A stretch of DNA of 64,000 nt, from positions 1,290-65,289 of the forward strand of contig CAMWUK010000005.1 in NCBI GenBank assembly GCA_947177415.1. The letters are read 5' to 3'. The notes below the pieces were generated by a model. That model worked only from the letters and a program-made list of their open reading frames with translations. It ran no database searches and was not told the origin of the DNA. Positions 3,154 through 46,987 of this stretch are shown piece by piece (position 1 is the first letter of the stretch; the number at the start of each line of letters is the position of its first letter). A program made the translations under genes and the position numbers. This DNA is from an uncultured Clostridiaceae bacterium. GTDB lineage: Bacteria; Bacillota; Clostridia; Lachnospirales; Lachnospiraceae.

Positions 3154-6100
3154 ATGCATAACATTCAAAAAGATAAAAAGATGTTTTCAAGTGTCGGAGG
3201 CAATCGGGGAAAGGACTCGTTGCAGTCTGTAAACAGAGCATACATAAAAAGACTCGTTGCATTTATGATATGCTTAATCCTCGTCTTTCATAATTTCATA
3301 ACAGTAGCAGCCGCTGATGATGGGCAGTCCAATAACCGGACGGTTAAAGCCGGTATCTTCTACTTCGAGGGTTATCACATGAAGGATGAGGAAGGAAAAC
3401 TGACTGGTTATGGTATGGAATTTCTTGACATGGTCTCCGAATATTCCCATCTGAATTTCCAGTACACGGGCTATGACAACTCCTGGAGTGACATGCTTAC
3501 TATGCTGGAAAACGGTGAAATAGACATGGTAACCTCTGCCCGGAGGACTACAGAACGGGAGGAGAGTTTCGCCTTTTCTCTCCCTATCGGCAGAAACAGA
3601 ACCATTCTCTCGGTCCGGTCCGATAATACACAGCTACACAGCGGTGATTACAAAACTTATAATGGAATGACGGTGGGACAGCTGGCAGGAAGCAGTCAGA
3701 ACCAGAGTCTGGTGGAATTTGCAGAGGAAAAGGGATTTTCCTACCAGACAAAGGAATATAATGATTCCGATGCCCTTGTGACCGCTTTGCAGGATGGCAA
3801 GATTGATGCAATCCTTTCCAGCGATTTGAGAAAAGCGAAAAATGAAAAAACGCTGGAAATTATTCAGGAGGATAACTTTTACGCAATTGTCCGAAAAGAC
3901 GATACGGAGCTGCTTAACGAAATCAACTATGCCATTGAGCAGATGGATCAGAATGAGGGTGACTGGAAAAATGTGTTGTATTACCGCTACTACGGTCCGG
4001 TTTATTCCTCTGCACTCACCTTTACAGAGCGCGAGAAGGCATACATTCAGGAGGTGGTCTCCGGAGAAAAAAAGATTACCATAACCGCCTTTGGCAACAG
4101 AGAACCCTATTCCTATGTGAAGGACGGAGAATTAAAGGGTATTCTGCCGGATTATTTTGCCTGTGTTATGGAGATGGCTGGACTGCCTTATGAAATCGTG
4201 ATACCGAAGGACAGAGAGGACTATAATACCATGGTAGACACCAACAGCGTGGATGTGGTTATTGACAGGCTCAGCTCCAGTGCTATCATGGAGGAAGCCT
4301 CTTACCATGGGTTCAATACGGATGCCTATATGACAACAGGCGTGGCAAGGGTAACACGACAAGATTTCGCTGGAGACATTAAAACGATTGCCGTATCGGA
4401 TTCACAAAGCGGTGCTTTGATTTCGCAGAAGCTTTATGGAGATTTTGAAATTTTGAATTATTCCACCAGAGAGGCTGCGATGCAGGCTGTTCTGAACCAT
4501 GAGGTGGACGCTGCCTATGTATATGCCTATACGGCACAGTTGTTTGTGAACCGTGACACCACCAATTCCCTATACTACAGCATAGCGAACGATATGGACA
4601 TAGACTTCCGGATGTATGTCCGTGACAGTGCGGATCATGAGCTGATTACCATCCTGAACAAATGTATCCAGCAGATGTCAGATGACATGCTGAATCAATT
4701 GGTTTTAAAACATACTTCCTATACCATTGAGGATTTGAATCTTCTGCAATATATGCAGGCCAATCCGAAGATCATGCTCATCATGGTTCTGGCAACCGCC
4801 CTGATTATCTGCGTCATTCTGGTGCTCTATCTGCAGGGACGGTGGAGCAGGAAGCTTCTGGACACCACAGAACAATCAAATAGGGCGATGAAGGAGCAGC
4901 TTGCCATTGTGGAAACATTAAGCCGTGATTATACGAATGTTTTTGCCATCAATGAGGAGTGTGGCACCGCCAGAATTATTAAATTGGAAGGTTATGTAAC
5001 AGAAGGACTGAAAAAGGATTCTAAGGAAGAGCAGCCCTATGCCCCGATTTTGAACCAGTATATCCAGAATCGTGTCCATCCGGAGGATCAGGAGTATCTC
5101 ACACAGGCTCTTTCTCTGGACAAAGTCAGGGAGCAGATAGCCTCAAATGGGGAATACACAGGCAGCTACCGTATACAGGCAGACGGGGAAAACCATCATT
5201 TCCAATATACCTATATAAAGGTTGGAGAAAGCGATCTTAAGAAGGACAGTTTTATCCTTGCGGGATTCCGCAATATTGACGAGATGATCCGCAAGGAGCA
5301 GGAGCAGAAGGCAGTTCTGGAGGAAGCTCTGGCACAGGCTCAGTATGCCAACAATGCAAAGACTACCTTCCTCAACAATATGTCCCACGATATCCGCACA
5401 CCTATGAATGCCATCATTGGCTTTACCTCCTTGGCGGTAACCCATATTGATAACAAAACGCAGGTGCAGGACTATCTGGGGAAGATCATGACCTCTGGCA
5501 ACCATCTGTTGAGCCTGATTAACGATGTTCTGGATATGAGCCGCATCGAGAGCGGCAAGGTTAAAATAGAGGAAAAAGAAGCCAGTCTTCCGGAGATCAT
5601 GCACGATTTGAAGACTATCGTCCAGACTGACGTGAGAGCAAAGCAACTGGAATTCTACATTGATACTCTGGGTGTGGAAAACGAGACGATTATCTGTGAC
5701 AAACTCCGCCTGAATCAGGTGCTTCTGAATATTATGAGCAATGCCATGAAATACACAAAACCCGGCGGAATGGTCAGCGTCCGTGTTCTCCAGACCTCCG
5801 AAGCACAGGAGGGCTATGCTTCATACGAGTTCCGGATTAAGGATACTGGTATCGGCATGAGCCGCGAATTTCTAAAACACGTTTTCGAGCCTTTTGAGCG
5901 GGAACAGACAGCCACCGTAAGCGGCATTCAGGGAACTGGTCTGGGTCTTGCCATCACAAAAAACATTGTGGACATGATGGGCGGCACAATCACAGTGGAC
6001 AGTGAGGAGGGAAAAGGGTCGGAATTTACCGTAACTTTCCGTTTCCGGACTGCTGACAGCCCCGTGAAGTCCCAGCGGCTGGAACAACTGGCGGATCTTA

Positions 6101-6891
6101 GGGCACTGGTGGTAGATGATGACGTGAATACCTGCGTCAGTGTAAGTAAGATGCTCTCCGCCATTGGTATGAATCCCGACTGGACGACCTTGGGAAAGGA
6201 GGCTGTTATCCGCACAGAGTTCGCATTGGAGCAGAACGAGCCTTACAGTGCGTATATCATAGACTGGCTGATGCCGGATATGAACGGCATAGAGCTTGTT
6301 CGAAGAATCCGCAAGGTAATCGGAGATATGACACCTATTATCATACTGACTGCCTACGACTGGGCGGACATTGAGAAGGAGGCCAGAGAGGCTGGCGTCA
6401 CGGCATTCTGCTCCAAGCCAATCTTCCCCTCAGAGCTGCGGGAGGTTTTGGCGGCACCCTACATGGAACAGGAAAGTACAAAGGAAACAGACTCGTCGGA
6501 GCTTCGCTTTGATGGCAAGAAAATCCTGCTGGTGGAGGATATTGAGATGAATCAGGAGATTGCCCGGGCGATTCTGGAGGCTGTAGGATTTCTTATTGAT
6601 ACGGCGGATGATGGAAGCATAGCCGTAGAGCAGATAAAGGAGTTGCCTGCGGATACGTACGATTTAATACTGATGGATGTCCAGATGCCTATTATGAACG
6701 GCTATCAGGCCACAAGAGCCATTCGGGCACTGGATGATCCTGTCAAGGCGGCGATTCCTATTGTGGCGATGACTGCCAATGCTTTTGAGGAGGATCGGAA
6801 GGAAGCCATGGATGCCGGAATGAATGGATATGTGGCAAAGCCTATTGACATAGAAAAATTGATGCAGACACTGGAAGATATTTTGAAATAA
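3154..6891 (+). CDS. Hybrid sensor histidine kinase/response regulator with two extracytoplasmic solute-binding-type domains
   Basis: 1245 aa with AAGGAG RBS. Two PBPb-like repeats precede a TM segment (IMLIMVLATALIICVILVLYL). H-box FLNNMSHDIRTPMNAIIG; HATPase G-boxes (DTGIGM, GTGLGLAI). Two receiver domains (VVDDD..DWLMPDMNG; LLVEDIE..LMDVQMPIMNG). Confidence 0.9.
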   Translation: MHNIQKDKKMFSSVGGNRGKDSLQSVNRAYIKRLVAFMICLILVFHNFITVAAADDGQSNNRTVKAGIFYFEGYHMKDEEGKLTGYGMEFLDMVSEYSHLNFQYTGYDNSWSDMLTMLENGEIDMVTSARRTTEREESFAFSLPIGRNRTILSVRSDNTQLHSGDYKTYNGMTVGQLAGSSQNQSLVEFAEEKGFSYQTKEYNDSDALVTALQDGKIDAILSSDLRKAKNEKTLEIIQEDNFYAIVRKDDTELLNEINYAIEQMDQNEGDWKNVLYYRYYGPVYSSALTFTEREKAYIQEVVSGEKKITITAFGNREPYSYVKDGELKGILPDYFACVMEMAGLPYEIVIPKDREDYNTMVDTNSVDVVIDRLSSSAIMEEASYHGFNTDAYMTTGVARVTRQDFAGDIKTIAVSDSQSGALISQKLYGDFEILNYSTREAAMQAVLNHEVDAAYVYAYTAQLFVNRDTTNSLYYSIANDMDIDFRMYVRDSADHELITILNKCIQQMSDDMLNQLVLKHTSYTIEDLNLLQYMQANPKIMLIMVLATALIICVILVLYLQGRWSRKLLDTTEQSNRAMKEQLAIVETLSRDYTNVFAINEECGTARIIKLEGYVTEGLKKDSKEEQPYAPILNQYIQNRVHPEDQEYLTQALSLDKVREQIASNGEYTGSYRIQADGENHHFQYTYIKVGESDLKKDSFILAGFRNIDEMIRKEQEQKAVLEEALAQAQYANNAKTTFLNNMSHDIRTPMNAIIGFTSLAVTHIDNKTQVQDYLGKIMTSGNHLLSLINDVLDMSRIESGKVKIEEKEASLPEIMHDLKTIVQTDVRAKQLEFYIDTLGVENETIICDKLRLNQVLLNIMSNAMKYTKPGGMVSVRVLQTSEAQEGYASYEFRIKDTGIGMSREFLKHVFEPFEREQTATVSGIQGTGLGLAITKNIVDMMGGTITVDSEEGKGSEFTVTFRFRTADSPVKSQRLEQLADLRALVVDDDVNTCVSVSKMLSAIGMNPDWTTLGKEAVIRTEFALEQNEPYSAYIIDWLMPDMNGIELVRRIRKVIGDMTPIIILTAYDWADIEKEAREAGVTAFCSKPIFPSELREVLAAPYMEQESTKETDSSELRFDGKKILLVEDIEMNQEIARAILEAVGFLIDTADDGSIAVEQIKELPADTYDLILMDVQMPIMNGYQATRAIRALDDPVKAAIPIVAMTANAFEEDRKEAMDAGMNGYVAKPIDIEKLMQTLEDILK

Positions 6892-7711: not shown

Positions 7712-7846
7712 GTAACTGTTCAGAACCATGAACAGTTACATTTAAGCCCATAATTATTCGCCTTCGGCGAAGGGGCTTAAACATTGCAAAATTTACTTTT
7801 TCTTACGAAACAAGCAGTAAATGCTTGTTTCTACCTAAATAGTTAC
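7712..7846 (+). mobile_element. MITE-like element, family A, full length
   Basis: TIRs GTAACTGTTCAG / CTAAATAGTTAC. Three internal hairpin modules. Perfect 8-bp direct repeat ATTTTCTT at 7704-7711 and 7847-7854. Confidence 0.85.
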
Positions 7847-26313: not shown

Positions 26314-26448
26314 GTAACTCTTTAAATAGAAACACGCATTTACTGCGTGTTTCGTAAGAAGAAGTAAATTTTGTAATGTTTAAGCCCCTTCGCCAAAGGC
26401 GAATTATTATGGGCTTAAACGTAACTGTTCATGGTTCTGAACAGTTAC
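26314..26448 (-). mobile_element. MITE-like element, family A, full length
   Basis: Reverse complement of the 7712/31286 copies. 8-bp direct repeat AGAAAATT (26306-26313) / AGAAAATC (26449-26456), 7/8 identical. Supplies the last 13 codons and the stop of the ABC ATPase. Confidence 0.85.
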
Positions 26449-31285: not shown

Positions 31286-31420
31286 GTAACTGTTCAGAAG
31301 CATGAACAGTTACGTTTAAGCCCATGAATATTCGCCTTCGGCGAAGGGGCTTAAACATTGTAAAATTTACTTTTTCTTACGAAACACGCAGTAAATGCGT
31401 GTTTCTACCTGAATAGTTAC
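31286..31420 (+). mobile_element. MITE-like element, family A, full length
   Basis: TIRs GTAACTGTTCAG / CTGAATAGTTAC. 8-bp direct repeat CCTTCCTT (31278-31285) / CTTTCCTT (31421-31428), 7/8 identical. The TIR supplies the kinase stop codon. Confidence 0.85.
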
Positions 31421-33475: not shown

Positions 33476-33485
33476 AAGAAATCCT

Positions 33486-33651
33486 TTCTGTAATATTAGC
33501 CTTGAAAAATTTATTCCAACATTTCTATCTATTATCAGGAGTTCTACTTCCAGACATTCTTTTTTCTTTTTCCCTGAAAAGCATTACTACCTTTTATAGT
33601 ATACTTGATTTATTACTGGTTTTCCATTTTACTTTTGCTTTGCCACACATT
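33486..33651 (+). repeat. Copy 1 of a duplicated ~166-bp non-coding segment
   Basis: About 85-90% identical to 34007-34123 plus 34271-34314. Abuts the response-regulator start codon. Confidence 0.75.
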
Positions 33652-33825
33652 CCATTCCATGTATTGCTTTCACTTTAATCAGCCCTTTCACTGGTATGGT
33701 GAAACTGATTATATCAGTGAAACTTTTTTGTGTCAACTCTATATCTCTCACTAATACTTCTTCTATAAGCGAAAATATATTCTTCTTACATTTATCCACA
33801 AAATCCAGATTAAATGTTGTTTATG

Positions 33826-33962
33826 AGTAACTATTCAGGTAGAAACACGCATTTACTGCGTGTTTACGTAGCAAAATGTAAATTTTGATTGTTCTAAGCC
33901 CTTCGCTGAAGGCGAATTATCATGGGCTCAGAACATAACTGTTCATGGTTCTGAACAGTTAT
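33826..33962 (-). mobile_element. MITE-like element, family A, diverged full-length copy
   Basis: GTAACTATTCAGG...CTGAACAGTTAT. Perfect 8-bp direct repeat GTTTATGA at 33818-33825 and 33963-33970. The module stem has compensatory changes. Confidence 0.8.
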
Positions 33963-34006: not shown

Positions 34007-34314
34007 CACTACCGCCTTTTCTGTAATATTAGCCTTAAAAAATTTATTCCTACCTTTCTATCCATCACCATGAGTTCCACTTCCAAACATTCTTTTTTCC
34101 TGAAAAGCATTCCTACCTTTTATAGTATGCTTGCGTAAATCCCACTAGAAATTGCAAAAACAATGTATTCACCACTTTACAACTCTTTAATAAAAAACAT
34201 AGCATATTCACCAATTGCAATATGAGAAATTTGCTAGGAAATACAAAAGAAAGAAATAGTTAATATGTATGATTTATTACTGGTTTTCCATTTTACTTTT
34301 GTTTTGCCATACAT
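34007..34314 (+). repeat. Copy 2 of the duplicated segment, interrupted by ~147 bp
   Basis: Matches 33486-33651 in two blocks (34007-34123 and 34271-34314). Unrelated sequence fills 34124-34270. Confidence 0.7.
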
Positions 34315-34424
34315 ACCTTTTAATTTTAACTGATAAGTCTGCTTTATATTGTTATAACTATAACTACAAAAAAGACAGGGTAACTTCATTTTAAAGTTCC
34401 TGTCTTATTTAAGTCTTTTTTACG

Positions 34425-34475: not shown

Positions 34476-34784
34476 TCAAACAGGCTGCAAAACCTTGACT
34501 GCCTTCACTTCCTCTACTGTCAATCCTGAACATTGTGCAATCTCTTCCAATGTCAATTTACCATTGTTTAACAGATTTTTTGCAATCTCTATTCGCTCTT
34601 CTCTCATTTCCTTTGCAACAATATCTTCTACAATCTTACACATAGAACTTTGTCCCTCCTTATCTGTCTTGAAATATCTGGCACGGTTTGCCAATTCTAT
34701 ATAATTCATATCTTCGGGATTCGTACAACTGAAGTCATGCATCAGTTTTCCAAGTGGTGTGTTATCTTTAATTTCTCCATTCAC
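34476..34784 (-). pseudogene. C-terminal remnant of an Rpn-type (PD-(D/E)XK putative transposase) family gene
   Basis: 102-aa ORF. LGKLMHDFSCTNPEDMNY...YFKTDKEGQSSMCKIVED...GKLTLEEIAQCSGLTVEEVK resembles the C-terminal third of ~300-aa clostridial Rpn-family proteins, from recollection. The N-terminal nuclease domain is absent. Confidence 0.45.
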
Positions 34785-35014
34785 ATATATAATATGTGCA
34801 TCATCTCCAAAAAGCTCTCCTGTTTCTTCAATTCTTCTATGCTATTCTTAATAATACAATGAAATTCATAAACAAATTCATAGAGAGTTAAAGGCAAAAA
34901 ACAAAATTCTTTATTAAGTATTATCATGTACGAAATCATCATTGAGATAACTCCTGCTATTGCCATAAGTTTAATCATTTTCACTTTAAGATTCATAACA
35001 ACGTATTTCTCCAA
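34781..35014 (-). CDS. Possible small hydrophobic protein
   Basis: 77-codon ORF with a TTG start 2 nt after the upstream stop. One TM-like segment (LMAIAGVISMMISYMIIL). Weak support. Confidence 0.3.
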   Translation of the reverse strand: MEKYVVMNLKVKMIKLMAIAGVISMMISYMIILNKEFCFLPLTLYEFVYEFHCIIKNSIEELKKQESFLEMMHILYM

Positions 35015-35016
35015 CT

Positions 35017-36411
35017 TTAATAAATATTATCCATATCAAAACCCAACTGCATCCTTGTTAGAAGATCATCCATAGTTGGATAAAACTCTTGTATATAATT
35101 ATATAAATCCATATAATTTATATATATTTTTCTAAAATCATCAAGATTGAAATCTATGTCTATTAAATACCTGGAAAAAGAAGAATCTGTCCCTTCGTTA
35201 TAATGGATAAATGATGTTAAATTCCATAGATATTCAAAAACCTGCTCTTCTAGATATGGCTCTATCAGCTCTAACAATTTTATCAAATCATGCGTATCAA
35301 TCCTTTTTACATAGTTTTGCACTTCCTCCTGTGTATTCAGAATTTGTTTTTTCAAGTCTTCATTAACAAAAATTAATTTATATGCTAATTCCACACTTTG
35401 TCTAAAATTCATAAATACGGGAAAATACAAACCATATAATTTAGTATCAACCTTTCTCTGCTCAATCATTTTATTTCCCATGCATAAACATTTCAATTTT
35501 GCTATTTCTTGATTAATCCTTTCCTCTTCACCTAATGTAATGTGAGTAAAAAATATTTCAGATAGTATTTGGGTAGCATACTTATAATTTCTATACTGAT
35601 AATAAAACGGCATTGCAGAATTGAATAATAAACCATCATACAAAATCAATGACACATTACGTCCTGCCATATTATCAAAATACGAATTTTTTACATTGTC
35701 ATCTTTTTTATAAAGTTTTTCGCTTTTATCTAAAAACTTACTTCTATTCTTCTGTATATATTGGGATAATTCACAAATGTTACTAAGTATTTTTAATCCG
35801 TTTTTCAATTCTTCTCTGTATAAATTATTTGGATTAATTCTTTTTTCTACATCTCTACGTAAAATCTCAAATTTGTCTTCATATTCTGTAATAGATTTCT
35901 TTTTGTATTTGCAGATATTGCTAAATAACCTAATATTGAATCTGGTAATCGCATATCTTTCAGCCCAACAGTTATCCATATTGCATTTTGCAAAATCTAG
36001 CAAATCAAGATATGTACTTTTTTTCTTTTCTATATAATCTTTAAACTCAAAGTTAAAATTATATCTTTTCACTTCCCTTACTTTACCCTTTAATTTTCCT
36101 GAACGGTTATTTTGATAATATACTTCATCATCAAATAATTCGACAATGTAAATGTATCTAACACTTTCTCCAAAAGAAAGAATTTGTCTGCCATGGAATA
36201 AACCTAATATATTAAACTCTTTTCTTTTCTCAGTAGGTGTTGGTTCAAGTGTTTCACGATTTGAATACACAAAAAAGAACATATCATTCTTATCTTCTAT
36301 ATCTGCAAAAAAAATTCTATTATAAATGGCTACATCATTTTTTATTTCCCTACCTGTTGCCTTATAACAAACAGCATCATAATCTTTCTTTTCTATAGAA
36401 ATATCAATCAA
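35017..36411 (-). CDS. Unknown 464-aa protein, last large gene of the candidate defence operon
   Basis: Long uninterrupted ORF in very AT-rich DNA. TTG start with an AGGGAG RBS 9 nt upstream. No motif I can assign; no Walker A. Confidence 0.7.
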   Translation of the reverse strand: MIDISIEKKDYDAVCYKATGREIKNDVAIYNRIFFADIEDKNDMFFFVYSNRETLEPTPTEKRKEFNILGLFHGRQILSFGESVRYIYIVELFDDEVYYQNNRSGKLKGKVREVKRYNFNFEFKDYIEKKKSTYLDLLDFAKCNMDNCWAERYAITRFNIRLFSNICKYKKKSITEYEDKFEILRRDVEKRINPNNLYREELKNGLKILSNICELSQYIQKNRSKFLDKSEKLYKKDDNVKNSYFDNMAGRNVSLILYDGLLFNSAMPFYYQYRNYKYATQILSEIFFTHITLGEEERINQEIAKLKCLCMGNKMIEQRKVDTKLYGLYFPVFMNFRQSVELAYKLIFVNEDLKKQILNTQEEVQNYVKRIDTHDLIKLLELIEPYLEEQVFEYLWNLTSFIHYNEGTDSSFSRYLIDIDFNLDDFRKIYINYMDLYNYIQEFYPTMDDLLTRMQLGFDMDNIY

Positions 36412-36470
36412 AACTCTTCACTCCCTCTGTCTTTTTAATTACTAAAACCATCATCATTAATCAACCCATC

Positions 36471-39400
36471 TTACATTTTCTTTATATGCTCCTCAATAAA
36501 ATCTACTTCTTCTTCTGACAAACCATACTTTTCATAAAGCTGTCTATCAATTTCATCAATTGACTTACTCCAATCAATATCCGATGTAGACTTAAAATTC
36601 TGCATAGGGATATTTCCCCATGTATCTCTGGGGTTATCTTGTGTAACTTTTAAAGTTCCTAGCATAGTCCTTGCAAATTTTGTTTTTATATATTTTAATA
36701 ATGCCTCTGCCTCATCACGATTAGAAAACTTTCCAATACTTAAAAAAGTCACTGTATGCCCCATAGCAGGTTCTCCTATAACCGGTGTTGAGAGAACTTC
36801 CCCTAATGCCCCTGTCCCATTTGATTTTGCTACAAACACTTTATAATAATCAAAATTATCAGGTACTTTCAAATATTTCTTCTTTATCCATCTTTCAATA
36901 CGTTTATTATTATTTCTGCCAAATACTTTTGCATATTCATCATCTGGTTTGTTTTCTAAAAACAATTCTGGAAATACATCAAATACATTTGAACCTACAT
37001 CATATTTGTGTCCTTGACTTTGTCTATCCTGTACCCATTTATTCTCACTATATAATTCATCTGTCAAATGATACAAATCTCTGGGATACACCATTTCTGA
37101 AAAAGAAACAAAATTATCTGTTATTACCTTATTCATTATTGAATATACTTCCGGATAAACTGTAAATGTTCCTATCTTTCCAAACTCCTGATTCGAATCC
37201 CACATTGACACAGTAATACCGCCTTTAACATCAACACTTGGAAATACTTCTCTACTATCCATCCAATAATCTACAACTTTAAAATGTTCATCATTTAGAA
37301 TTTTCTTATTCCAATCCTTTGGAGTCTTTCCTGCATTAAAAAGAAACCTTCCTGGATGAATAAAGGTACCTAAACCACATATTGAACGTGCTGCATCTAT
37401 AAACAAATGATATATAGGATTAGAACCTTTTCCATCTCCTTGGTTTGTTAATTGATATGGTGGATTTCCCACAACTGCATCAAATTTCATCTCGCCATCT
37501 CCAATCTTCCAATAACTTTCTTTTATGACTTTTTTCACAAAATTATCTGGCTTATTCTTAAGCATATTAATTAGATTTTCAAAATAATGAGCATTTACTT
37601 TATATTCCTTAAAACCTGCCAGTGTTCTTTTTGTAATCTGCTTTGCCATTGGTGTCTTACAAATAACAAAAACATTATTTTCTACTGTTTCCTTCCATAT
37701 CTCATCCTCAAGTGTAACAGTAATATCTAGCTCTGTATATTCCTTTCGTCTTGCTCTATATATGCTATAAGCAACATATAATGGATATAATCCTGTTTTG
37801 GAATTTATCTCTAAAATCCTTGCCTTTTTATTTACCAGCGTATCTCTTGTCACTCTCTCATGCTCTACAAAGACAGGCTCTCCATCTATTCTTTTGTTAT
37901 TTTCATCATAAAATGTGTATCCGCCTAAGCAATCTCTCATGTGCATATTAACTACACGCCATGGTGTCAATACTGTCTCCTTATCTGGATTCTTGAAACA
38001 AGAAAACAAATCTGCAATTTTCTGAACCCTCTCTGTTGGTGGCAAACGGTCTGCTGAAACTACCGTGTTCCGAATTTTCCGTCCGGCTTCTACAAAGATT
38101 TCTGGGTCATAATATTTCATAAACTCCCGAAACATTTCCTTGGTAACACCATTGGGCATAAATTCATCCCATGATGCTGTGTCCACAATTTCATCATCAA
38201 GAAACATGTCTAATGTAAAATCCTCATTGATATCTATATTTGCTCCATAAATTAAAAGCGGCATACGAATAGACACTGCTCTTAATATGGAAATAGCTAT
38301 GTTTCTTTGCTCTTTTTTCTTCTTAACTTTCTCATAAAAGGCTTGCTCTTCTGGTGTGCGTTGCTTTTTTGGTTTTCCCTCTATTTTTTGAATTTCTTCA
38401 TATTCTTCTTCTGTAAATCCTTGTGCATTAATGTCTATGTCCTTTGACTTTGGTGCGGCTTTCGAAGTTCCAACCTGTTTTTTTAAGTTCTCAAATTTCT
38501 TCCAATCAACATCATCCAACTTCAACAACTCATCATTGTATAAGTTGACATCATCAAATCCATTTTTCACTGCCTTTTCTGCATACGCACGCTTTAACTG
38601 TTGCAATAACTTATTTGTGTTATATGATTTCATTCTTGTTCCATCTATAGAAATCACAGGACAATAATTCAAAAATTCTCCCATAATCCTTTTTCCTGCT
38701 TCTTGGGTTTTTCCTGCTTTTGTGGAAAGTGTAGCATATTCTGCCACCATTTTTAATGTTCTGTCAGGAGCAAAATCAAAAACATAACAATGCGTTTTTA
38801 TTTTTCCATCTTTGTTACATGGCGATTGCACTCGGAAAATCGTCTGTAAATAATTTGCGGCAGATGTAGAATACGAACCAGCTAACATCAGCACTGCTGT
38901 CCATTCACGGACAGTCACCCCTGTAGTTAGTTTTCCACAGGACAATGTTATCGTGTAGCCATCTTCTCCAGCATCTGCAATTGCTTTCTTTACCTTACTG
39001 AGTGCTTCATCAGACTTTTCTTCCTCATCACCTTCTCCTGCCACATTGACAATTTCGAACATGCCACTTCCAAATACAGGATGATTCCTCATCATCTTAC
39101 TAAGTGCCTTTGCCTCTTTTACTCCTGGCACCATCCATAAAGAATGTTTAAACAATTCACGATACTCTTCCCTAGCATAAGGATAACAGCTTTCTTCATC
39201 TTCCTTTGTAATCAGATTCAAAAAACTCATCACATCATTTTTATGTACAAAATCTCCAATTTGCACATTTCCCGATATCTGCTTATGGTCACTCTTTATA
39301 TCTCCTGTCCATGTCCGAAAAAACTCCCGGAAATTAAATGCCCTATCTTCCAATTCAACATATTGGTCACTTTTAATCAATTTGCCCAAATCATATGTAT

Positions 39401-40505
39401 ATATTTTCATTTCTGGCAGTTCTTCATACGGATTAGAATCTCCAAAATGTGTTTTATTCCATTCTTTTTTTGCTGTTTGCTCCATTACATAATCCCATGT
39501 ATAAATATTATCTTCATACTGTTCCAAACGGTTAAATGGTGTTCCTGATAATTCTAACACTTTTGTCACATGGCTACTATCCCGTTTTTCCAATGCCGCA
39601 CGAACATTTTCACCCAATTCTGTGTTTGTTCCCTCGTGAGCTTCATCAATTATGATAAAATCCCAGTCTAAATTAAACACTTCATTATTTTTATCAAATT
39701 TACCACCCACTGCACTGGAACCACGCAAATCTTGCATTGAAGCAAAATAAATAAATTTCTTTCCTGACCTTTCTAACTCTATCACCGAATTTCCCTTGCT
39801 CCTTGAGCCATAAAGATATCCATCTTCTTTTCTAAATATCTTGTCAAAATCTTCATACCAGCCATCGTCAACAACCGGGCGATGTGTAATAATTATAGTT
39901 TTATGGAAATCCGCTTCTTTTACCACCTGCAAAGCAGATAAGGTTTTTCCAAAACGCATTTTAGCATTCCATAACATGGTATTTGTTGTTTTAAATTGCA
40001 TTAGCGTTTTTTTGATAGCCTCTTTTTGTTCCGGGCGAAATTGAATTTGTAATGTTACAACTTCTGATGTTCCTGCAAGATTATTATGACAATCCTTTAC
40101 TGCCTGAATTGCTCTTTTTACAGTGTTCAAATCAACTTTAAACCATTCTTGTCCAGTTGAATCTTGAAATCTGTGTTTTTTATATCCAGAATTTTCCAAC
40201 ACACGATGTACCTCATGATCTGAAAACGCCTGTAAAATCAATACACCATCTTCTTTTTTTACTGTTTTAATTGCTAATTCCGTATAAATTGGATTTGATG
40301 ACAATCCCAGAGTATTTGTATACTCCTTTATTCTTTCTTTTGCAGCCTGATTTAATTCATGACAACAGGCAGGTAACTGTTCAGGTGTCCTGTCTGTATT
40401 TATAGATGCTTTCCCCACCTTCAACATCCCTTTATGGTGTTCATCCTTCACTTCATACACATAAACAATATTATATTCAAATGAATTTAGAAATGCTTTG
40501 TCCAT
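36471..40505 (-). CDS. Fusion protein: T5orf172/GIY-YIG-like domain, SF2 (ResIII/DEAH) helicase, gamma-class N6-adenine DNA methyltransferase with C-terminal TRD
   Basis: 1344 aa. N-terminus: IVYVYEV..GMLKVGKAS..HRVLEN..QEWFKVDLNTVKRAI. Helicase: RFGKTL (motif I), IIIDEAHEG (II), LSGTP (III), GKLTTGVTV (V), QTIFRVQSP (VI). MTase: VLTPWRVVNMHM (X), ILEINSKTGLYPLY (degenerate I), VVGNPPYQ (IV). Confidence 0.85.
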   Translation of the reverse strand: MDKAFLNSFEYNIVYVYEVKDEHHKGMLKVGKASINTDRTPEQLPACCHELNQAAKERIKEYTNTLGLSSNPIYTELAIKTVKKEDGVLILQAFSDHEVHRVLENSGYKKHRFQDSTGQEWFKVDLNTVKRAIQAVKDCHNNLAGTSEVVTLQIQFRPEQKEAIKKTLMQFKTTNTMLWNAKMRFGKTLSALQVVKEADFHKTIIITHRPVVDDGWYEDFDKIFRKEDGYLYGSRSKGNSVIELERSGKKFIYFASMQDLRGSSAVGGKFDKNNEVFNLDWDFIIIDEAHEGTNTELGENVRAALEKRDSSHVTKVLELSGTPFNRLEQYEDNIYTWDYVMEQTAKKEWNKTHFGDSNPYEELPEMKIYTYDLGKLIKSDQYVELEDRAFNFREFFRTWTGDIKSDHKQISGNVQIGDFVHKNDVMSFLNLITKEDEESCYPYAREEYRELFKHSLWMVPGVKEAKALSKMMRNHPVFGSGMFEIVNVAGEGDEEEKSDEALSKVKKAIADAGEDGYTITLSCGKLTTGVTVREWTAVLMLAGSYSTSAANYLQTIFRVQSPCNKDGKIKTHCYVFDFAPDRTLKMVAEYATLSTKAGKTQEAGKRIMGEFLNYCPVISIDGTRMKSYNTNKLLQQLKRAYAEKAVKNGFDDVNLYNDELLKLDDVDWKKFENLKKQVGTSKAAPKSKDIDINAQGFTEEEYEEIQKIEGKPKKQRTPEEQAFYEKVKKKKEQRNIAISILRAVSIRMPLLIYGANIDINEDFTLDMFLDDEIVDTASWDEFMPNGVTKEMFREFMKYYDPEIFVEAGRKIRNTVVSADRLPPTERVQKIADLFSCFKNPDKETVLTPWRVVNMHMRDCLGGYTFYDENNKRIDGEPVFVEHERVTRDTLVNKKARILEINSKTGLYPLYVAYSIYRARRKEYTELDITVTLEDEIWKETVENNVFVICKTPMAKQITKRTLAGFKEYKVNAHYFENLINMLKNKPDNFVKKVIKESYWKIGDGEMKFDAVVGNPPYQLTNQGDGKGSNPIYHLFIDAARSICGLGTFIHPGRFLFNAGKTPKDWNKKILNDEHFKVVDYWMDSREVFPSVDVKGGITVSMWDSNQEFGKIGTFTVYPEVYSIMNKVITDNFVSFSEMVYPRDLYHLTDELYSENKWVQDRQSQGHKYDVGSNVFDVFPELFLENKPDDEYAKVFGRNNNKRIERWIKKKYLKVPDNFDYYKVFVAKSNGTGALGEVLSTPVIGEPAMGHTVTFLSIGKFSNRDEAEALLKYIKTKFARTMLGTLKVTQDNPRDTWGNIPMQNFKSTSDIDWSKSIDEIDRQLYEKYGLSEEEVDFIEEHIKKM

Positions 40506-40506
40506 A

Positions 40507-41478
40507 TTATTCCGCTCCTCTCACAAGCGAATGATATGATAATGATTCATTCGCCCTCCAATCTTTAATCATACAATAAGGGGCTATTATCTCTAGTTCC
40601 TCTTCAAATGTCCCATATTCTTCTTCCACTTCTATAAAGTCAAATATATTCATTTGATGCCTTTGTTTTTTTACTGCACCAAATGGAATTGTCATTGTAA
40701 GCCCATCCATTTGCCACAAATTCCATGCAATAATATTAGCAACTTCCTTTAATTGCTTTAATTCAGGCTCACAATCAAATTTGTATTTCATATTATCAAT
40801 AAAAGTATATAAAATATTTTCTCTTGCTAACAAAAGATTATCACCTTGATACTCATATCCATACACACTCTGCACTGCCCGTACTGCCCATTTCAACCAT
40901 TCATCTTTATTATCTGTATTTTCATTTATAACTCTAAATTTTCTATCTAGCAAACCAATACGTCTATGTACTGGCAACATCTTTCCTGTGACTACGTCAT
41001 ATCTGCTTACAAGATAGGGTGCTTCCCCACAGGATATTTCCATTCTCCTTGCATCAACATAGTCTTTCCATGTCTTCCCCTTTTTTTCTGAAAAAACAAT
41101 CTTTTTTACGCTATTATGCCAATTTTTCTCGGTTTCAATATTAAATACATTTTTTCTTCCAAACCAACGTTCATCTATCAAGTTATTTTGCTCATTACAA
41201 ATCCATGATGGTGTAAATACTTCTGCTTTATCTTTAGTTCGGTTACTTTGACTTGTTTTTGCCTTTGCCACACGGGGTTGTATCACTTTGCTATGTATTC
41301 CTGTAATATTTGAAAGAGTAATCTCATCCTGTTCATCAAATCCATCTCCCAACTCCTTATAATCCTTTGTTGCCCAAATAATATTATGCCTTGTTGTTTT
41401 ATCTTTCAACAAACGACTTAAAACTTCTCTTCCAAATTGCAGGATGACATCCTCGCTAATATCTATACTTTCACTCAT
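40507..41478 (-). CDS. Methyltransferase-fold-like protein lacking the catalytic (D/N)PP(Y/F/W) motif
   Basis: 323 aa. AEVFTPSWICNEQNN (motif X-like), EISCGEAPYLVSRYD (motif I-like), VYGYEYQGDNLLLARENIL. No PP dipeptide anywhere. Its stop is 1 nt from the ATG of the 1344-aa gene. Confidence 0.7.
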   Translation of the reverse strand: MSESIDISEDVILQFGREVLSRLLKDKTTRHNIIWATKDYKELGDGFDEQDEITLSNITGIHSKVIQPRVAKAKTSQSNRTKDKAEVFTPSWICNEQNNLIDERWFGRKNVFNIETEKNWHNSVKKIVFSEKKGKTWKDYVDARRMEISCGEAPYLVSRYDVVTGKMLPVHRRIGLLDRKFRVINENTDNKDEWLKWAVRAVQSVYGYEYQGDNLLLARENILYTFIDNMKYKFDCEPELKQLKEVANIIAWNLWQMDGLTMTIPFGAVKKQRHQMNIFDFIEVEEEYGTFEEELEIIAPYCMIKDWRANESLSYHSLVRGAE

Positions 41479-41710
41479 TGAAATTTCACCGCCTACCTAT
41501 ATAAACGAAACTCTAACATAAATTTTAACATAAAAAGTCAGTTGAATAAAGCCAAATCTACTTTTGTATATTGGGGCAACCTCCTTCCTCCTCCTAATTC
41601 CATCCACTCTTTGTACCCATTCTAACAGCATTTCTTTTTTCAATTGTTCCATTAAACCTTTTTTATCAATCTGCAATATACAATCCCAATTATTAAAATT
41701 GAAAAAATCG

Positions 41711-41718
41711 TGTATAAT
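41711..41718 (+). promoter_or_regulatory. Extended -10 promoter element for the WYL regulator gene
   Basis: TGTATAAT lies ~95 nt upstream of ATG 41814, in the divergent intergenic region. Confidence 0.4.
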
Positions 41719-41813
41719 AGTTTTATGGAAAATGATACCATTACACAACACTTTCATTTATGGTGTTACCGCAACACAACATGATCATTTACTATAAGAG
41801 GAGGAGACAACAA

Positions 41814-42734
41814 ATGAAAACCGAACGTCTTTATGCTATAACAATATACCTTCTTAATCATGGAAGAACGTCTGCCAGTGAATTGGCGAGGTATTTTGAA
41901 GTATCTGTACGGACAATACAACGGGATATAGATTCTCTTTGCCTTTCAGGCATTCCTATCATTGCAGTTAATGGAGCAACAGGAGGATATGAAATATCTA
42001 ACGGATTTAAATTGGATAAAGAATTTGCTACCTCAGACGACTATTCTTATATTTTGACAGCACTACAAGGACTGATATCCGCTACCAACCATCCAACAGC
42101 AAAACATATATTGGAAAAAATACTTCATGTGTCAAACCCAAATGATAATGGTATTATTTTGGATTTTTCTGTTTTGCGTGAAGGAGATCAAACTACCCTG
42201 CAGATGCTGCAAACTGCTGTACTCGAAAAACATACTGTTAATTTTATATATACAAACAATAATAATGAAACCCGCACACACAGCGTAGAACCCATTGCTG
42301 TCCTTTACAGATGGTATGCATGGTATCTTCTTGCCTATTCTAAAATAAAAAATGATTACCGTACCTACAAACTTGTACGAATGAGAAATTTAGAAATTAC
42401 TGACATACCTTTTATAAAGGAACATGAGCCTGCAGATCTTATTTTGAAAATGACAGATAAAACAGACTGCCGTCAATATACAGATGTACTTGTTAAATGC
42501 AAAGAATCGGCAAAGGCACGGGTTATAGAATATTTAAACGGAACTATTATTGAGGAATCTGCAAATGGTTATTCTTTAATAAAACTGATAGTGGTTGAAA
42601 ATGAGCAATCTTGGATTGGAACGCTATTATCTTTAGGAGACAATGTAGAGATAGTTTCACCAGAAAGAATTCGTAATCGTGTAATAGAAGCTGCCACAAA
42701 AATTCTTTCTTTATATAACTGTTCAGAACTATGA
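41814..42734 (+). CDS. HTH-WYL domain transcriptional regulator (YafY/BrxR/CapW-like architecture)
   Basis: N-terminal HTH RLYAITIYLLNHGRTSASELARYFEVSVRTIQRDIDSL. WYL region VEPIAVLYRWYAWYLLAYS..YRTYKLVRM. GAGGAGG RBS before ATG 41814. Confidence 0.85.
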   Translation: MKTERLYAITIYLLNHGRTSASELARYFEVSVRTIQRDIDSLCLSGIPIIAVNGATGGYEISNGFKLDKEFATSDDYSYILTALQGLISATNHPTAKHILEKILHVSNPNDNGIILDFSVLREGDQTTLQMLQTAVLEKHTVNFIYTNNNNETRTHSVEPIAVLYRWYAWYLLAYSKIKNDYRTYKLVRMRNLEITDIPFIKEHEPADLILKMTDKTDCRQYTDVLVKCKESAKARVIEYLNGTIIEESANGYSLIKLIVVENEQSWIGTLLSLGDNVEIVSPERIRNRVIEAATKILSLYNCSEL

Positions 42735-42788: not shown

Positions 42789-43352
42789 ATGATTAGTCCA
42801 TACGAAAAATGTCCCATATATGAAAATGAAAACTATCTTTTAAGGTTTATTGAAGCTTCTGATGTGTCTGATTTGCTTTCTGTGTATTCTGACGAAAAGG
42901 CTGTACCCTTCTTCAACAGCGATAATTGTAATGGCAATTTCCACTGTACATTATTAGAACATGTACAGGGAATGATAGAAGCATGGCAATGGGAATATAA
43001 ACAAAAGGGATTTGTACGTTGGTCAATTATTGACAAAAAAATTCAGCATGCAATAGGAACCATTGAACTATTTAATCGTCATGCAGATGATTATTTTAAT
43101 GATTGTGGCATATTACGATTGGATTTAAGGAGTGATTATGAGCAAACCAAACATATCTTTGAAATATTGTCTCTTATCATCCCATCAACATTTGAACTAT
43201 TCAACTGTCAGATGATTGCAACAAAGGTTCCGAATTTTGCTTCTAATCGTAAATTGGCAGTAGAACAATTAGGTTTTACCGCTTCTATGGAAAAGTTGAT
43301 AGGTGGGCATGATGGGAAGATTTACACAGATTATTATGTCTTGAAAAAATAA
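42789..43352 (+). CDS. GNAT family N-acetyltransferase
   Basis: 187 aa. YLLRFIEASDVSDLLSVYSD...FVRWSIIDKK..AIGTIELFN resembles the RimJ/RimL-type GNAT fold. Confidence 0.7.
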   Translation: MISPYEKCPIYENENYLLRFIEASDVSDLLSVYSDEKAVPFFNSDNCNGNFHCTLLEHVQGMIEAWQWEYKQKGFVRWSIIDKKIQHAIGTIELFNRHADDYFNDCGILRLDLRSDYEQTKHIFEILSLIIPSTFELFNCQMIATKVPNFASNRKLAVEQLGFTASMEKLIGGHDGKIYTDYYVLKK

Positions 43353-44199: not shown

Positions 44200-44305
44200 G
44201 AAAAATGAAAGTTGATTGCTACGCACTCCCACAATCACTAACTGTATGAGTATTCCGGACTGTCGCTCTACATACTCATACAGTTTGGCTGGACTTTCAG
44301 GGTAA

Positions 44306-45266: not shown

Positions 45267-46166
45267 ATGATGAAATGGATTCGCAAAGAAAAAACAGCTA
45301 ATATCTCTTATGAAGAACAGATTAAAAGTGCAGCGGAACTTATAGAAAAATCAGAAGTCCTGCTGATTGGAGCTGGTGCCGGAGTTTCAACAGCAGCCGG
45401 ACTTACTTACAGCGGTAAACGTTTTACAGATAACTTTAGTGAATTTATTGAGAAATATGGTGCTATGTCTATGACAGATATGTATACCGCAGGCTTTTAT
45501 CCTTTTCCTACACAAGAAGCCAAATGGGGATATTGGTCAAAACACAGCATAATAAACCAATTCTTACCACCTGCTATGCCTCTATACAAGCAACTCTACA
45601 ACTTGTTCAAAGAGAAGGATTATTTTGTTCTGACCACAAATGTTGATCACCAATTCCAAAAGGCCGGTTTTGACAACAATCGTATCTTTGCAACACAAGG
45701 TGATTATGGGCTAATACAATGTGAAAAGGGATGCCATCCAAAAACTTATGATGCCGAAAATTTATTTTATCAAATGAACCAGGCAAGAACAGACTGTCTG
45801 ATTCCCTCTTATATGGTTCCCAAATGCCCCGTTTGTGGTGGCAACATGACAATGCACCTACGCTGTGACCAGTATTTTGTAGAAGATGAAAATTGGCATA
45901 AAGCAGCAAAAAATTATGGAAATTTTCTAAATAATATGAGAGATAAAAAAGGAGTATTACTGGAATTAGGTGTGGGATTTAACACCCCTGCTATTATTCG
46001 TTTTCCTTTTGAAAATATGGTACATGAGAACAGCAATTTGTCACTTATCCGTTTGAACCTAAAAGAAGCTGTTGTTCCTGAAAGCCTTGGAAACAGGGCA
46101 ATCGGCATAGATGCAGATATAGCAAAAGCAGTATCTGATTTATGTGCAGAATTTCGCAACCATTGA
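45267..46166 (+). CDS. SirTM-like (class M) sirtuin, putative protein ADP-ribosyltransferase
   Basis: GAGAGVSTAAGL, TTNVDHQF, and a Zn-ribbon (QCEKGC...CPVCGG). Gln sits where canonical sirtuins have the catalytic His (FATQGDYG). Confidence 0.75.
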   Translation: MMKWIRKEKTANISYEEQIKSAAELIEKSEVLLIGAGAGVSTAAGLTYSGKRFTDNFSEFIEKYGAMSMTDMYTAGFYPFPTQEAKWGYWSKHSIINQFLPPAMPLYKQLYNLFKEKDYFVLTTNVDHQFQKAGFDNNRIFATQGDYGLIQCEKGCHPKTYDAENLFYQMNQARTDCLIPSYMVPKCPVCGGNMTMHLRCDQYFVEDENWHKAAKNYGNFLNNMRDKKGVLLELGVGFNTPAIIRFPFENMVHENSNLSLIRLNLKEAVVPESLGNRAIGIDADIAKAVSDLCAEFRNH

Positions 46167-46198
46167 GAGAAGTTTTCATAAAAAAGGAGGATTGTGCT

Positions 46199-46987
46199 AT
46201 GACACATAGTGAGAAAAGACTATATCTGATTAAAGAATTATTATCCGAACTGCCCCAATATAGAAATATGAAAATCCCAGATAATATTGATGAACAGAAA
46301 AGACTTTTTAGAAGCCTTATGAACATTCGCCCTCCTCACCCAATAGAAACAGAATTTCTCAAAATACAGGACGAATATCTGGGTGAGGAAGTCTTAGAAA
46401 AAGGAATTACCGACAGTGCTGCTTTACCTGTATCCCCTGTTAATAACCGTCTTATTCTCTGGCGTGGTGACATTACCACATTAAAAGTTGATGCAATTGT
46501 AAATGCGGCGAATAGTGCTTTAAGGGGCTGTTTCGTGCCATGTCATTCCTGTGTGGATAACATTATTCACAGTGTTAGTGGTATACAACTTCGTTTGGCT
46601 TGTGATGAGATTATGACAAAGCAGGGACATGATGAACCGACAGGCAAAGCCAAAATTACACCTGCATTTAATCTGCCATGTAATTATGTGCTTCATACTG
46701 TTGGACCAATCGTATTAGGGCAGCTTACCAAAAATCATTGCAGGCAGTTGGCTGATTGCTACCTATCCTGTCTGAAGCTTGCTTCGAAAAGTAAATTAAA
46801 AAGTGTTGCCTTCTGCTGTATTTCCACAGGGGAATTTCACTTTCCGCAGGAAAAAGCTGCTGAAATCGCAATAAAAACAGTATCAGATTATTTACAGACA
46901 GATACGCAGATTGAAAAGGTGGTATTTAATGTTTTCAAGCAGGAAGATTATGACATTTACAAAAGGTTACTCACATATAGACATTAA
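46199..46987 (+). CDS. Macrodomain protein (protein-ADP-ribose hydrolase type)
   Basis: LWRGDITTLKVDAIVNAANSAL, VDNIIHSVSG, HTVGP, CCISTGEFHFP. ATG 46199 after an AAGGAGG RBS. Confidence 0.85.
   Translation: MTHSEKRLYLIKELLSELPQYRNMKIPDNIDEQKRLFRSLMNIRPPHPIETEFLKIQDEYLGEEVLEKGITDSAALPVSPVNNRLILWRGDITTLKVDAIVNAANSALRGCFVPCHSCVDNIIHSVSGIQLRLACDEIMTKQGHDEPTGKAKITPAFNLPCNYVLHTVGPIVLGQLTKNHCRQLADCYLSCLKLASKSKLKSVAFCCISTGEFHFPQEKAAEIAIKTVSDYLQTDTQIEKVVFNVFKQEDYDIYKRLLTYRH

Follow-up and report, generated by a model that had tools for sequence, protein, structure and literature searches.

A two-gene restriction-modification-type locus with a predicted half-methyltransferase in an uncultured Clostridiaceae bacterium

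Genes at the locus and the conserved gene pair

The DNA analyzed here is a 64,000-nt stretch of contig CAMWUK010000005.1 from an uncultured Clostridiaceae bacterium, termed the window; all coordinates refer to it, position 1 being its first letter. On its minus strand lie two adjacent genes, encoding proteins of 323 and 1344 amino acids (aa), which are found paired in a wide range of bacteria and probably constitute an atypical restriction-modification (R-M) system. The 1344-aa protein is referred to below as the large protein. The open reading frames of the region are as follows.

40507-41478, minus strand: 323-aa gene
36471-40505, minus strand: 1344-aa gene
35017-36411, minus strand: 464-aa gene, with a TTG start
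34781-35014, minus strand: 77-codon open reading frame, a doubtful gene with no family match
34476-34784, minus strand: truncated C-terminal fragment of an Rpn-family (putative transposase) gene, with matches to NCBIfam TIGR01784 and PHROG 3300
41497-41757: 86-aa open reading frame upstream of the 323-aa gene, with no conserved counterpart
41814-42734, plus strand, divergent: HTH-WYL-WCX regulator gene (Pfam HTH_11, WYL, WCX)
42789-43352, plus strand: GNAT acetyltransferase gene (Pfam Acetyltransf_3)

An earlier reading made from the letters alone (the sequence-only reading) had described the open reading frames of this locus and the junctions between them, and all were found where it placed them. 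The TAA stop codon of the 323-aa gene (40509-40507) is followed after 1 nt by the ATG of the 1344-aa gene (40505-40503), whose GAGGAG ribosome-binding site (RBS) is situated at 40520-40515. A gap of 59 nt separates the end of the 1344-aa gene from the TTG start of the 464-aa gene, and a GAGGGAG RBS lies ahead of that start. A scan for promoters and terminators gave counts equal to the shuffled expectation and is uninformative.

One genome per species was scanned with an alignment of 1344-aa homologs, and relatives of the large protein are present in at least 564 species genomes spanning six phyla (Bacillota, Bacteroidota, Spirochaetota, Planctomycetota, Actinomycetota, and Pseudomonadota). The 323-aa and 1344-aa proteins each form a family of more than 8000 clusters at 90% identity, and homologs are found on 89 plasmids, lactococcal dairy plasmids among them. 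Neighbourhoods were compared in 80 retrieved loci that carry a relative of the large protein; 76 are testable for the upstream gene, the contigs of the other four ending 260 nt or less from the large gene. The 323-aa gene is situated directly upstream of the large gene and on the same strand in 76/76 testable loci, which come from six phyla, and the pairwise identities of the two proteins correlate over loci (r = 0.72). In P0311, an incomplete sequence of 1125 aa, the 323-aa module runs straight on into large-protein residues 24-865.

The 464-aa gene, the WYL gene, the GNAT gene and the Rpn fragment are found in 0/80 related loci. Neither the 86-aa nor the 77-aa open reading frame has a conserved counterpart there, and the earlier listing of the latter as a possible gene is thus not borne out. 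One R-M locus (L041) has a weak WYL-like open reading frame about 3 kb away. Downstream of the pair no gene family recurs in the 80 loci; the slot elsewhere holds TIR, DUF3644, DUF4357, and Schlafen (SLFN)/AlbA_2 proteins. Since the 323-aa gene accompanies the large gene in every testable locus, and the 464-aa, 77-aa and WYL frames are absent from the related loci, the conserved system consists of two genes; the 464-aa gene, the 77-aa open reading frame and the WYL regulator lie beside it without being part of it.

A Cro/C1-type helix-turn-helix (HTH) gene of the HTH_26 family is found directly upstream of the 323-aa gene in 15/76 loci, at a distance of 17-84 nt in 14 of these and 375 nt in one. 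This placement is the arrangement of R-M controller proteins, and the HTH_26 protein is the dedicated regulator where the pair has one. The 86-aa open reading frame of the window was considered as a controller protein and rejected; it is neither an HTH protein nor conserved.

The 323-aa protein and the large protein

The 323-aa protein gives no match in Pfam. The sequence-only reading had called it methyltransferase (MTase)-fold-like without naming a family; a family can be assigned, as the PADLOC MTase_II model PDLC03390, which is REBASE-derived, matches it over its full length with an E-value of 5.6e-121. In NCBI records it goes by 'restriction endonuclease subunit M'. In an alignment of 36 sequences the motifs AEVFTPSW.CN, E.SCGEAPYL, RIGLLDRK, YGYE.QGD, and WN.WQMDG are invariant. 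MTase motif X is assigned to AEVFTP, a variant of motif I to EISCGEAPYL, the motif II acid to E209 in YGYEY, and motif III to D258 in WQMDG, all of them invariant or nearly so. The earlier statement that an NPPY-type motif is lacking was correct, and it extends to the family: motif IV in the form (N/D/S)PP(Y/F/W/H) is absent in 36/36 members. Motifs V-VIII of a complete gamma-class enzyme are likewise lacking in the 323-aa protein. The protein also displays no variable target-recognition domain (TRD); its only low-conservation part is a linker at about 281-320, which overlaps a low-confidence segment of the structure model (predicted local distance difference test score, pLDDT, below 50 at 259-301).

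The motif assignments are anchored by a homolog encoded on pCV56A. This 230-aa 'N-6 DNA methylase' aligns to residues 80-265 of the 323-aa protein (E-value = 1e-7, z of about 10), and its gene lies 1 nt upstream of a large-protein homolog with 45% identity. Its motifs X (EVFTP), I (EPAAGDGNFL), II (YGIE), and III are canonical, and its matches to the N6_Mtase and MmeI_Mtase models are limited to the first third of each. The alignment places G151/A153/Y155, E209 and D258 of the 323-aa protein on motifs I, II, and III.

An exhaustive profile search yields 2308 representatives of the 323-aa family, many of them 630-710 aa long. In the fused relatives of about 650 aa, the complete 323-aa module runs on into 'MKFDFVIGNPPYQ...', and the half with the NPPY motif begins beyond the end of that module. 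In the 669-aa MTase P0290, the continuation shows 33% identity to residues 1002-1344 of the large protein and ends with the same C-terminal tail.

The two halves are found separately in the Tenacibaculum jumbo phage PTm1 (NC_049340; L151 4576-7008), where three genes lie in a row. The first encodes a 344-aa protein starting MKFDIIVGNPPYQ, which aligns end to end with residues 1006-1344 of the large protein (E-value = 9e-37); the second encodes a small HTH protein, and the third a 335-aa homolog of the 323-aa protein, without NPPY. A helicase-nuclease (R) gene is not present in this three-gene locus. It can be argued that the phage halves assemble in trans, because neither could be functional alone, and the pair is presumably a split MTase for self-protection.

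Thus the motifs of the pCV56A homolog, the fused relatives and the phage with separate halves indicate that the 323-aa protein is the S-adenosylmethionine (AdoMet)-binding N-half, with motifs X and I-III, of an Eco57I-type gamma-class MTase. On this evidence the 323-aa protein would not be able to methylate alone. Profile comparison (hhalign) of the 323-aa family with the full large-protein family and with its segment 800-1110 gave nothing significant, the best alignment being motif X to motif X.

The large protein shows in order a nuclease, a superfamily 2 (SF2) motor, a linker, an MTase, and a variable segment. Its features, all on the minus strand, are as follows.

40098-40466 (residues 14-136), minus strand: T5orf172 (GIY-YIG superfamily) putative nuclease, Pfam PF10544, E-value = 6.7e-6
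38646-40046 (residues about 154-620), minus strand: SF2 helicase-like ATPase motor, ResIII match at 154-324, E-value = 1e-15
37491-38003 (residues about 835-1005), minus strand: 'R-type' MTase N-half-like module (N'), with KETVLTPWRVVNM and ILEINSKTGLYPLY
37176-37490 (residues 1006-1110), minus strand: MTase catalytic half, starting MKFDAVVGNPPYQ, NPPY at 1014-1017
36786-37175 (residues about 1111-1240), minus strand: variable segment of low conservation, presumed TRD
36474-36785 (residues 1241-1344), minus strand: conserved C-terminal tail (...DIDWSKSIDEIDRQLYEKYGLSEEEVDFIEEHIKKM), common to the 650-aa MTases and the phage C-half

The fusion of a T5orf172 domain, a helicase and an N6-adenine MTase, which had been proposed from the letters, is confirmed by the Pfam matches and by NPPY at 1014. 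The PF10544 match is above its gathering score, MUG113 of the GIY-YIG superfamily also matches the N-terminus, and Pfam shows no Mrr_cat match there. Residues Y15, K29, G31, R58, E76, H100, and E120 are invariant in a 17-sequence alignment; invariant T5orf172 hallmark positions of this kind fit an active nuclease. The motor motifs are intact (GKT 186, DEAH 287, SGTP 320, QTIFRVQ 554), and the highest conservation of the protein is found at 521-560. The Pfam Eco57I match covers 943-1088 (E-value = 3.6e-28), NPPY is kept in 77/77 orthologs, and the catalytic half aligns with the C-half of P0290. The PADLOC REase_MTase_IIG model PDLC03626 gives an E-value of 5.9e-40, with only residues 890-1344 aligned, to profile positions 893-1359. 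In a 77-sequence alignment the majority-residue fraction falls to 0.30-0.35 at 1121-1200, compared with 0.6-0.8 elsewhere, and because of this drop the segment is presumed to be the target-recognition domain.

The N' module carries an X-like motif, KETVLTPWRVVNM, and an I-like motif, ILEINSKTGLYPLY, without GxG. It belongs to the most conserved stretches of the protein, with a majority-residue fraction of 0.89 at 841-870, next to 0.90 at 541-570, and is kept in the lactococcal homolog. A module in the equivalent position is seen in a sister architecture, in which a complete MTase gene of about 650 aa is directly followed by a gene for an R protein of about 1120 aa with T5orf172 and ResIII, which shares 33% identity with the large protein over residues 58-691 of the latter. 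The C-terminus of this sister R protein reads as an MTase N-half, with IFTPKKVVKEMV (X), FIDLYMKSGLY (I-like), VYGLAPTE (II-like), and LFDSL (III-like), and this module is homologous to canonical half-MTases (z of 6.4-7.5, with 0/300 shuffles as high). Residues 835-1005 of the large protein occupy the equivalent position, and hhalign of its segment 800-1110 with the sister R C-terminus was not significant. The window layout is thus [N-half] + [nuclease-motor-N'-catalytic half-TRD] and the sister layout [N-half-catalytic half-TRD] + [nuclease-motor-N']; both have two N-type halves and one catalytic/recognition half.

Because an N'-like module precedes NPPY, the large protein may be a self-sufficient MTase. 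In the form of this explanation weighed here, the large protein would be a Type ISP-like enzyme complete in itself, and the 323-aa protein a non-catalytic regulatory or docking subunit, e.g. an AdoMet sensor or assembly factor binding the N' module, and not the cofactor site for methylation. The X-like and I-like motifs lie 116-170 residues upstream of NPPY, which is the spacing expected of a complete gamma-MTase, they are among the most conserved residues of the large protein, and two N-half modules per catalytic half are retained in both the window and the sister architectures. However, N' has neither the GxG loop nor the motif II acid, while in the 323-aa protein motif I is TaqI-like and both E209 and D258 are retained, and in the fused and phage versions the NPPY half is partnered by an N-half of the 323-aa type. 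The self-sufficient enzyme, the main alternative to a 323-aa protein that supplies the cofactor-binding half, is considered unlikely.

The nuclease varies by branch: the window has T5orf172, lactococcal plasmids have a weak DUF4145 match, and pL6-1 has an Mrr gene of its own. In Lactobacillus amylolyticus pL6-1 (L088 4527-11358) an apparent frameshift interrupts the large gene, behind which come genes for an unknown protein of 227 aa, a half-MTase of 226 aa and a stand-alone endonuclease with Mrr_N + Mrr_cat. In this version of the system the nuclease and the half-MTase thus lie downstream. The plasmid homologs are not specifically described in the lactococcal defensome literature.

Neighbouring genes and the left border

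The 464-aa protein gives no Pfam, NCBIfam, PADLOC, or PHROG match, and its family is small, with 37 homolog clusters. An AlphaFold2 (AF2) model (pLDDT 82) shows an N-terminal beta domain and a helical body, for which Foldseek found no significant fold match in PDB or BFVD. HEPN-like and DUF4116-like helical matches were of low probability only, and no fold was assigned. Homologs (L001-L006, L089-L094) are found in five unrelated contexts and never with the 323-aa/1344-aa pair: in an integrative and conjugative element beside a giant SNF2 protein, after an FtsH-like protease gene, after an SNF2/DUF4391 cluster, after a DpnII-type restriction endonuclease, and within a prophage tail/lysis region. 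In these settings it recurs as a single gene, behind defence-type operons unrelated to one another as well as in the mobile elements. The 464-aa gene is mobile cargo independent of the pair and is a candidate for a defence or anti-defence gene that acts alone.

The closest homolog of the 464-aa protein (59% identity) is found at L089 3660-9392, on a Logan SRR18357301 contig. There, genes for an SNF2 helicase (1082 aa), a DUF4391 protein and a 102-aa protein precede it, in what appears as an uncharacterised defence-like cluster.

The divergent HTH-WYL regulator seen by the sequence-only reading is present, with Pfam HTH_11, WYL, and WCX matches. A start at 41814 is favoured over a longer open reading frame from 41760 because a strong AGGAGG RBS precedes the ATG at 41814. 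Its orthologs (61-74% identity) were surveyed in 53 metagenomic loci (L095-L147). A GNAT ortholog directly follows the WYL ortholog in 43/53, which is essentially all WYL loci with enough downstream sequence, and the 323-aa/1344-aa genes are found upstream in 0/53. In an empty-site comparison for the insertion limits, synteny upstream of the WYL gene was not conserved in the available relatives. WYL-GNAT is a resident two-gene unit which the R-M pair merely abuts, and the arrangement suggests a WYL-controlled acetyltransferase module.

These surveys bear on the proposal, made from the letters, of a novel three-gene defence system, with or without the small hydrophobic protein, under BrxR/CapW-like WYL control. 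In its favour, all three genes point the same way, the 59-nt gap between the second and third contains an RBS and no predicted terminator, and the WYL gene is divergent and adjacent. Yet the 464-aa, 77-aa, and WYL genes are missing from 80/80 pair-carrying loci, the 464-aa homologs occur in their five contexts never beside the pair, the WYL orthologs accompany GNAT and never R-M genes, and the slot downstream of the pair is filled elsewhere by the unrelated TIR, DUF3644, DUF4357, and SLFN/AlbA_2 cargo. A three-gene system under WYL control is therefore highly improbable. The check suggested at the time, a search for a conserved neighbourhood of the trio plus the WYL gene, finds only the 323-aa/1344-aa pair conserved: the trio is not syntenic elsewhere as regards the 464-aa gene, and the other two genes are syntenic in all testable loci. 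The BrxR/CapW analogy falls on both surveys, as the WYL gene occurs in no R-M locus and R-M genes in no WYL locus.

The locus had also been described as an AT-rich island, which does not apply to the pair. The GC content of the window is 35.1% and that of the pair 34.3% (z = -0.2). Low GC is confined to the 464-aa (26.7%) and 77-aa (27.4%) open reading frames, the 464-aa gene having the lowest GC in the window. The comparator of about 50% GC at 4.2 kb falls in the single high-GC outlier of the window, 3-7 kb, with 45.9% GC. This stretch is filled by one gene (3154-6891, plus strand) for a 1245-aa hybrid sensor kinase with SBP_bac_3, HisKA, HATPase_c, and two receiver domains; it is a real compositional outlier and may have been horizontally acquired.

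At the left border, the Rpn-like fragment, a repeat resembling a miniature inverted-repeat transposable element (MITE), and a duplicated non-coding segment are all present, as had been described.

33827-33961, left border: MITE-like repeat, with other copies at 31287-31420, 26314-26447, 7713-7846 and 16-98
34018-34320: duplicated non-coding segment, duplicate of 33485-33656, 85-92% identity in two blocks

The Rpn-like fragment covers positions 238-272 of 273 in TIGR01784 and positions 276-311 of 313 in the PHROG 3300 transposase. The intergenic repeat, of about 135 nt and similar to MITE or repetitive extragenic palindromic (REP) elements, is found in at least 5 copies in the 64 kb with 86-89% identity, and shorter fragments of it lie at 54.0, 54.8, and 61.8 kb. 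In the duplication, 33485-33656, the region upstream of a response-regulator gene, pairs with 34018-34133 and 34261-34320.

Two further observations concern the other side of the locus. Adjacent, overlapping genes at 45267-46987 (plus strand) code for a weak SIR2-family protein and a Macro-domain protein, a pairing that resembles the known sirtuin/macrodomain ADP-ribosylation operons. An Rfam match to the Clostridiales-1 small RNA is found at 44206-44299 (minus strand), at 48.5 bits for a gathering threshold of 48, between an Rrf2 regulator gene and a gene for an NAD-binding protein.

Interpretation and relation to known systems

The R-M character of the pair is indicated by the PADLOC R-M models, the Pfam domains, NPPY, the motor motifs, the variable segment, the HTH controller and the occurrence on plasmids. 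The functional unit is probably a two-gene ATP-dependent R-M system in which the 323-aa half-MTase is the cofactor-binding partner, in trans, of the large protein. As both proteins match REBASE-derived PADLOC R-M models and carry R-M names at NCBI, the pair is a variant of R-M and not a new class of defence. Of the earlier suggestion of a candidate undescribed defence system, what stands is an atypical R-M-type pair for which no published characterisation was found; the claim to novelty as a class does not.

In the proposed mechanism, the C-terminal variable segment of the large protein would recognise the DNA target and the NPPY domain would methylate the target adenine, which marks the DNA as self. 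DNA without the mark would be subject to translocation by the SF2 motor and to cleavage by the N-terminal T5orf172/GIY-YIG-type nuclease, as in Type ISP. The 323-aa protein, translated first and coupled, would supply a competent AdoMet-binding half to the catalytic/recognition half, so that modification would be set up together with restriction and protective methylation would depend on the 323-aa protein. The internal 'K-T-G-L-Y' N' module would represent a diverged second N-half belonging to the restriction moiety, with docking or AdoMet sensing as possible roles. The analysis shows the gene pairing, the domain content, the half-MTase nature of the 323-aa protein and the existence of both fused and split forms, whereas cleavage, translocation, adenine methylation and pairing in trans are activities predicted from sequence.

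Type ISP enzymes are the closest functional analogue. They are defined by an Mrr-like PD-(D/Q/E)xK nuclease, a translocase, a gamma-MTase, and a TRD in one polypeptide (PMC3874165). Their translocation is ATP-dependent, and cleavage depends on collision between head-to-head sites. Like LlaGI and LlaBIII, the large protein is a single polypeptide with nuclease, SF2 translocase, gamma N6-adenine MTase (NPPY) and TRD, and window-type homologs are plasmid-borne in lactic acid bacteria. The SF2 domain follows the nuclease in both (ResIII and the motor motifs in the large protein), and the gamma-MTase is followed by a C-terminal segment to which, in the large protein, TRD function is ascribed from variability alone. 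In contrast to the Mrr PD-(D/E)xK nuclease of Type ISP, the nuclease of the window is of the T5orf172/GIY-YIG type; in contrast to a single-gene system, there is an obligatory second gene for a half-MTase (76/76 loci and the distant plasmid versions); and the large protein carries an extra N-half-like module.

DnmA-YeeB-YeeC of Bacillus subtilis and Vibrio crassostreae, compared by description, also combines a gamma N6A MTase, an SF2 helicase, and a T5orf172 nuclease. DnmA is related to Type IIL/IIG enzymes, and the cluster is found in defence islands (PMC9973331). Unlike the window system, the three activities are on three polypeptides, the MTase is MmeI-like and complete, and there is no half-MTase partner. 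In Type IIG/IIL enzymes (Eco57I, MmeI, DrdV) and in PglX of BREX, a TRD likewise follows a catalytic domain of the Eco57I family. Type IIG enzymes lack an ATPase motor and cleave at a set distance from the site, whereas the large protein has an intact SF2 ATPase, and the PADLOC REase_MTase_IIG profile is matched over the C-terminal third only. The sister architecture, a 650-aa M protein with TRD and then a 1120-aa helicase-nuclease R protein, follows the logic of Type III Mod and Res. However, Type III Mod is beta-class and the nuclease of Type III Res is a C-terminal PD-(D/E)xK domain, unlike the sister and window systems, and the R polypeptide of the window has taken over the TRD and the catalytic half.

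No PglZ/BrxC/BrxL, DrmA/B/C, HsdS/HsdR, or Mod/Res match was found by PADLOC or Pfam in the seven locus proteins, in agreement with the sequence-only reading. Membership in Hma, MADS, DISARM, or BREX was rejected, there being no PADLOC matches to the signature proteins.

A precedent for an MTase formed by two polypeptides is given by the naturally split enzymes M.AquI and M.EcoHK31I (alpha and beta subunits), which are C5-cytosine MTases. Literature searches brought up no description of the 323-aa/1344-aa pair and no gamma-class adenine MTase that is split, with or without a catalytic half fused to a restriction motor.

Several points weigh against the two-gene R-M interpretation. Biochemical or methylome data for any family member were not found in the literature. 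No sequence similarity between the large protein and solved Type ISP enzymes could be detected: all PDB chains were searched with phmmer and with a 17-sequence profile, without a match to LlaGI/LlaBIII, and sequence searches of the PDB with three proteins and three family profiles yielded nothing significant. The AF2 model of the 323-aa protein (pLDDT 72.6) has no significant Foldseek match in the PDB, the weak, non-significant ones being BsaXI, PglX, LlaGI, and DrdV; the structure search proposed earlier for the 323-aa and 464-aa proteins, now done, thus gave no significant fold for either. A well-conserved N'-like module already precedes NPPY in the large protein. The link of N' to the sister R module and to MTase N-halves is marginal (z of 2.0-3.6), and hhalign of the N' segment with MTase N-halves is not significant. 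Finally, the related DnmA-YeeB-YeeC gave no phage protection in B. subtilis (PMC9973331), and for this reason activity of the pair cannot be assumed.

This last point leads to a further alternative, that the pair is not active in defence here and is a domesticated or relic R-M module whose MTase is now epigenetic, as with dnmA-yeeB-yeeC. The analogous MTase/helicase/T5orf172 cluster of B. subtilis presented neither phage protection nor a transformation barrier (PMC9973331), and the GC content of the pair matches the host genome. However, both open reading frames are intact with every catalytic motif conserved, the family is spread over phyla, plasmids, and variable loci as is typical of mobile defence genes, neighbouring slots hold defence-type cargo, and in Vibrio the dnmA and yeeB homologs do influence sensitivity to phage (PMC9973331). 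A relic is distinctly unlikely.

The two-gene R-M interpretation also admits a more specific form, in which one NPPY + TRD half is served alternately by the free 323-aa 'M-type' half and by the motor-linked 'R-type' N' half. Such alternation is a speculative and rather unlikely reading. It would explain the presence of two N-halves per catalytic half and why the phage keeps only the M-type pair. If true, mutually exclusive pairing would be a physical switch between modification and restriction, and a new way of coupling self-marking to attack in an R-M enzyme.

The family is very widespread, in dairy and gut plasmids as well, and apparently without experimental characterisation. Annotation pipelines label the 323-aa protein 'restriction endonuclease subunit M' or 'Type II MTase', which appears to be a mis-annotation, and the view of a split adenine MTase changes the assignment of methylome motifs to genes. 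This is relevant to bypassing such systems in genetic work with Fusobacterium, Clostridium, Treponema, and lactic acid bacteria. The locus also gives a caution for calls made from gene neighbourhoods, as its co-directional and divergent neighbours are unrelated cargo and resident genes. For biochemical work, the pair offers a natural case in which the division of modification and restriction among polypeptides can be studied.

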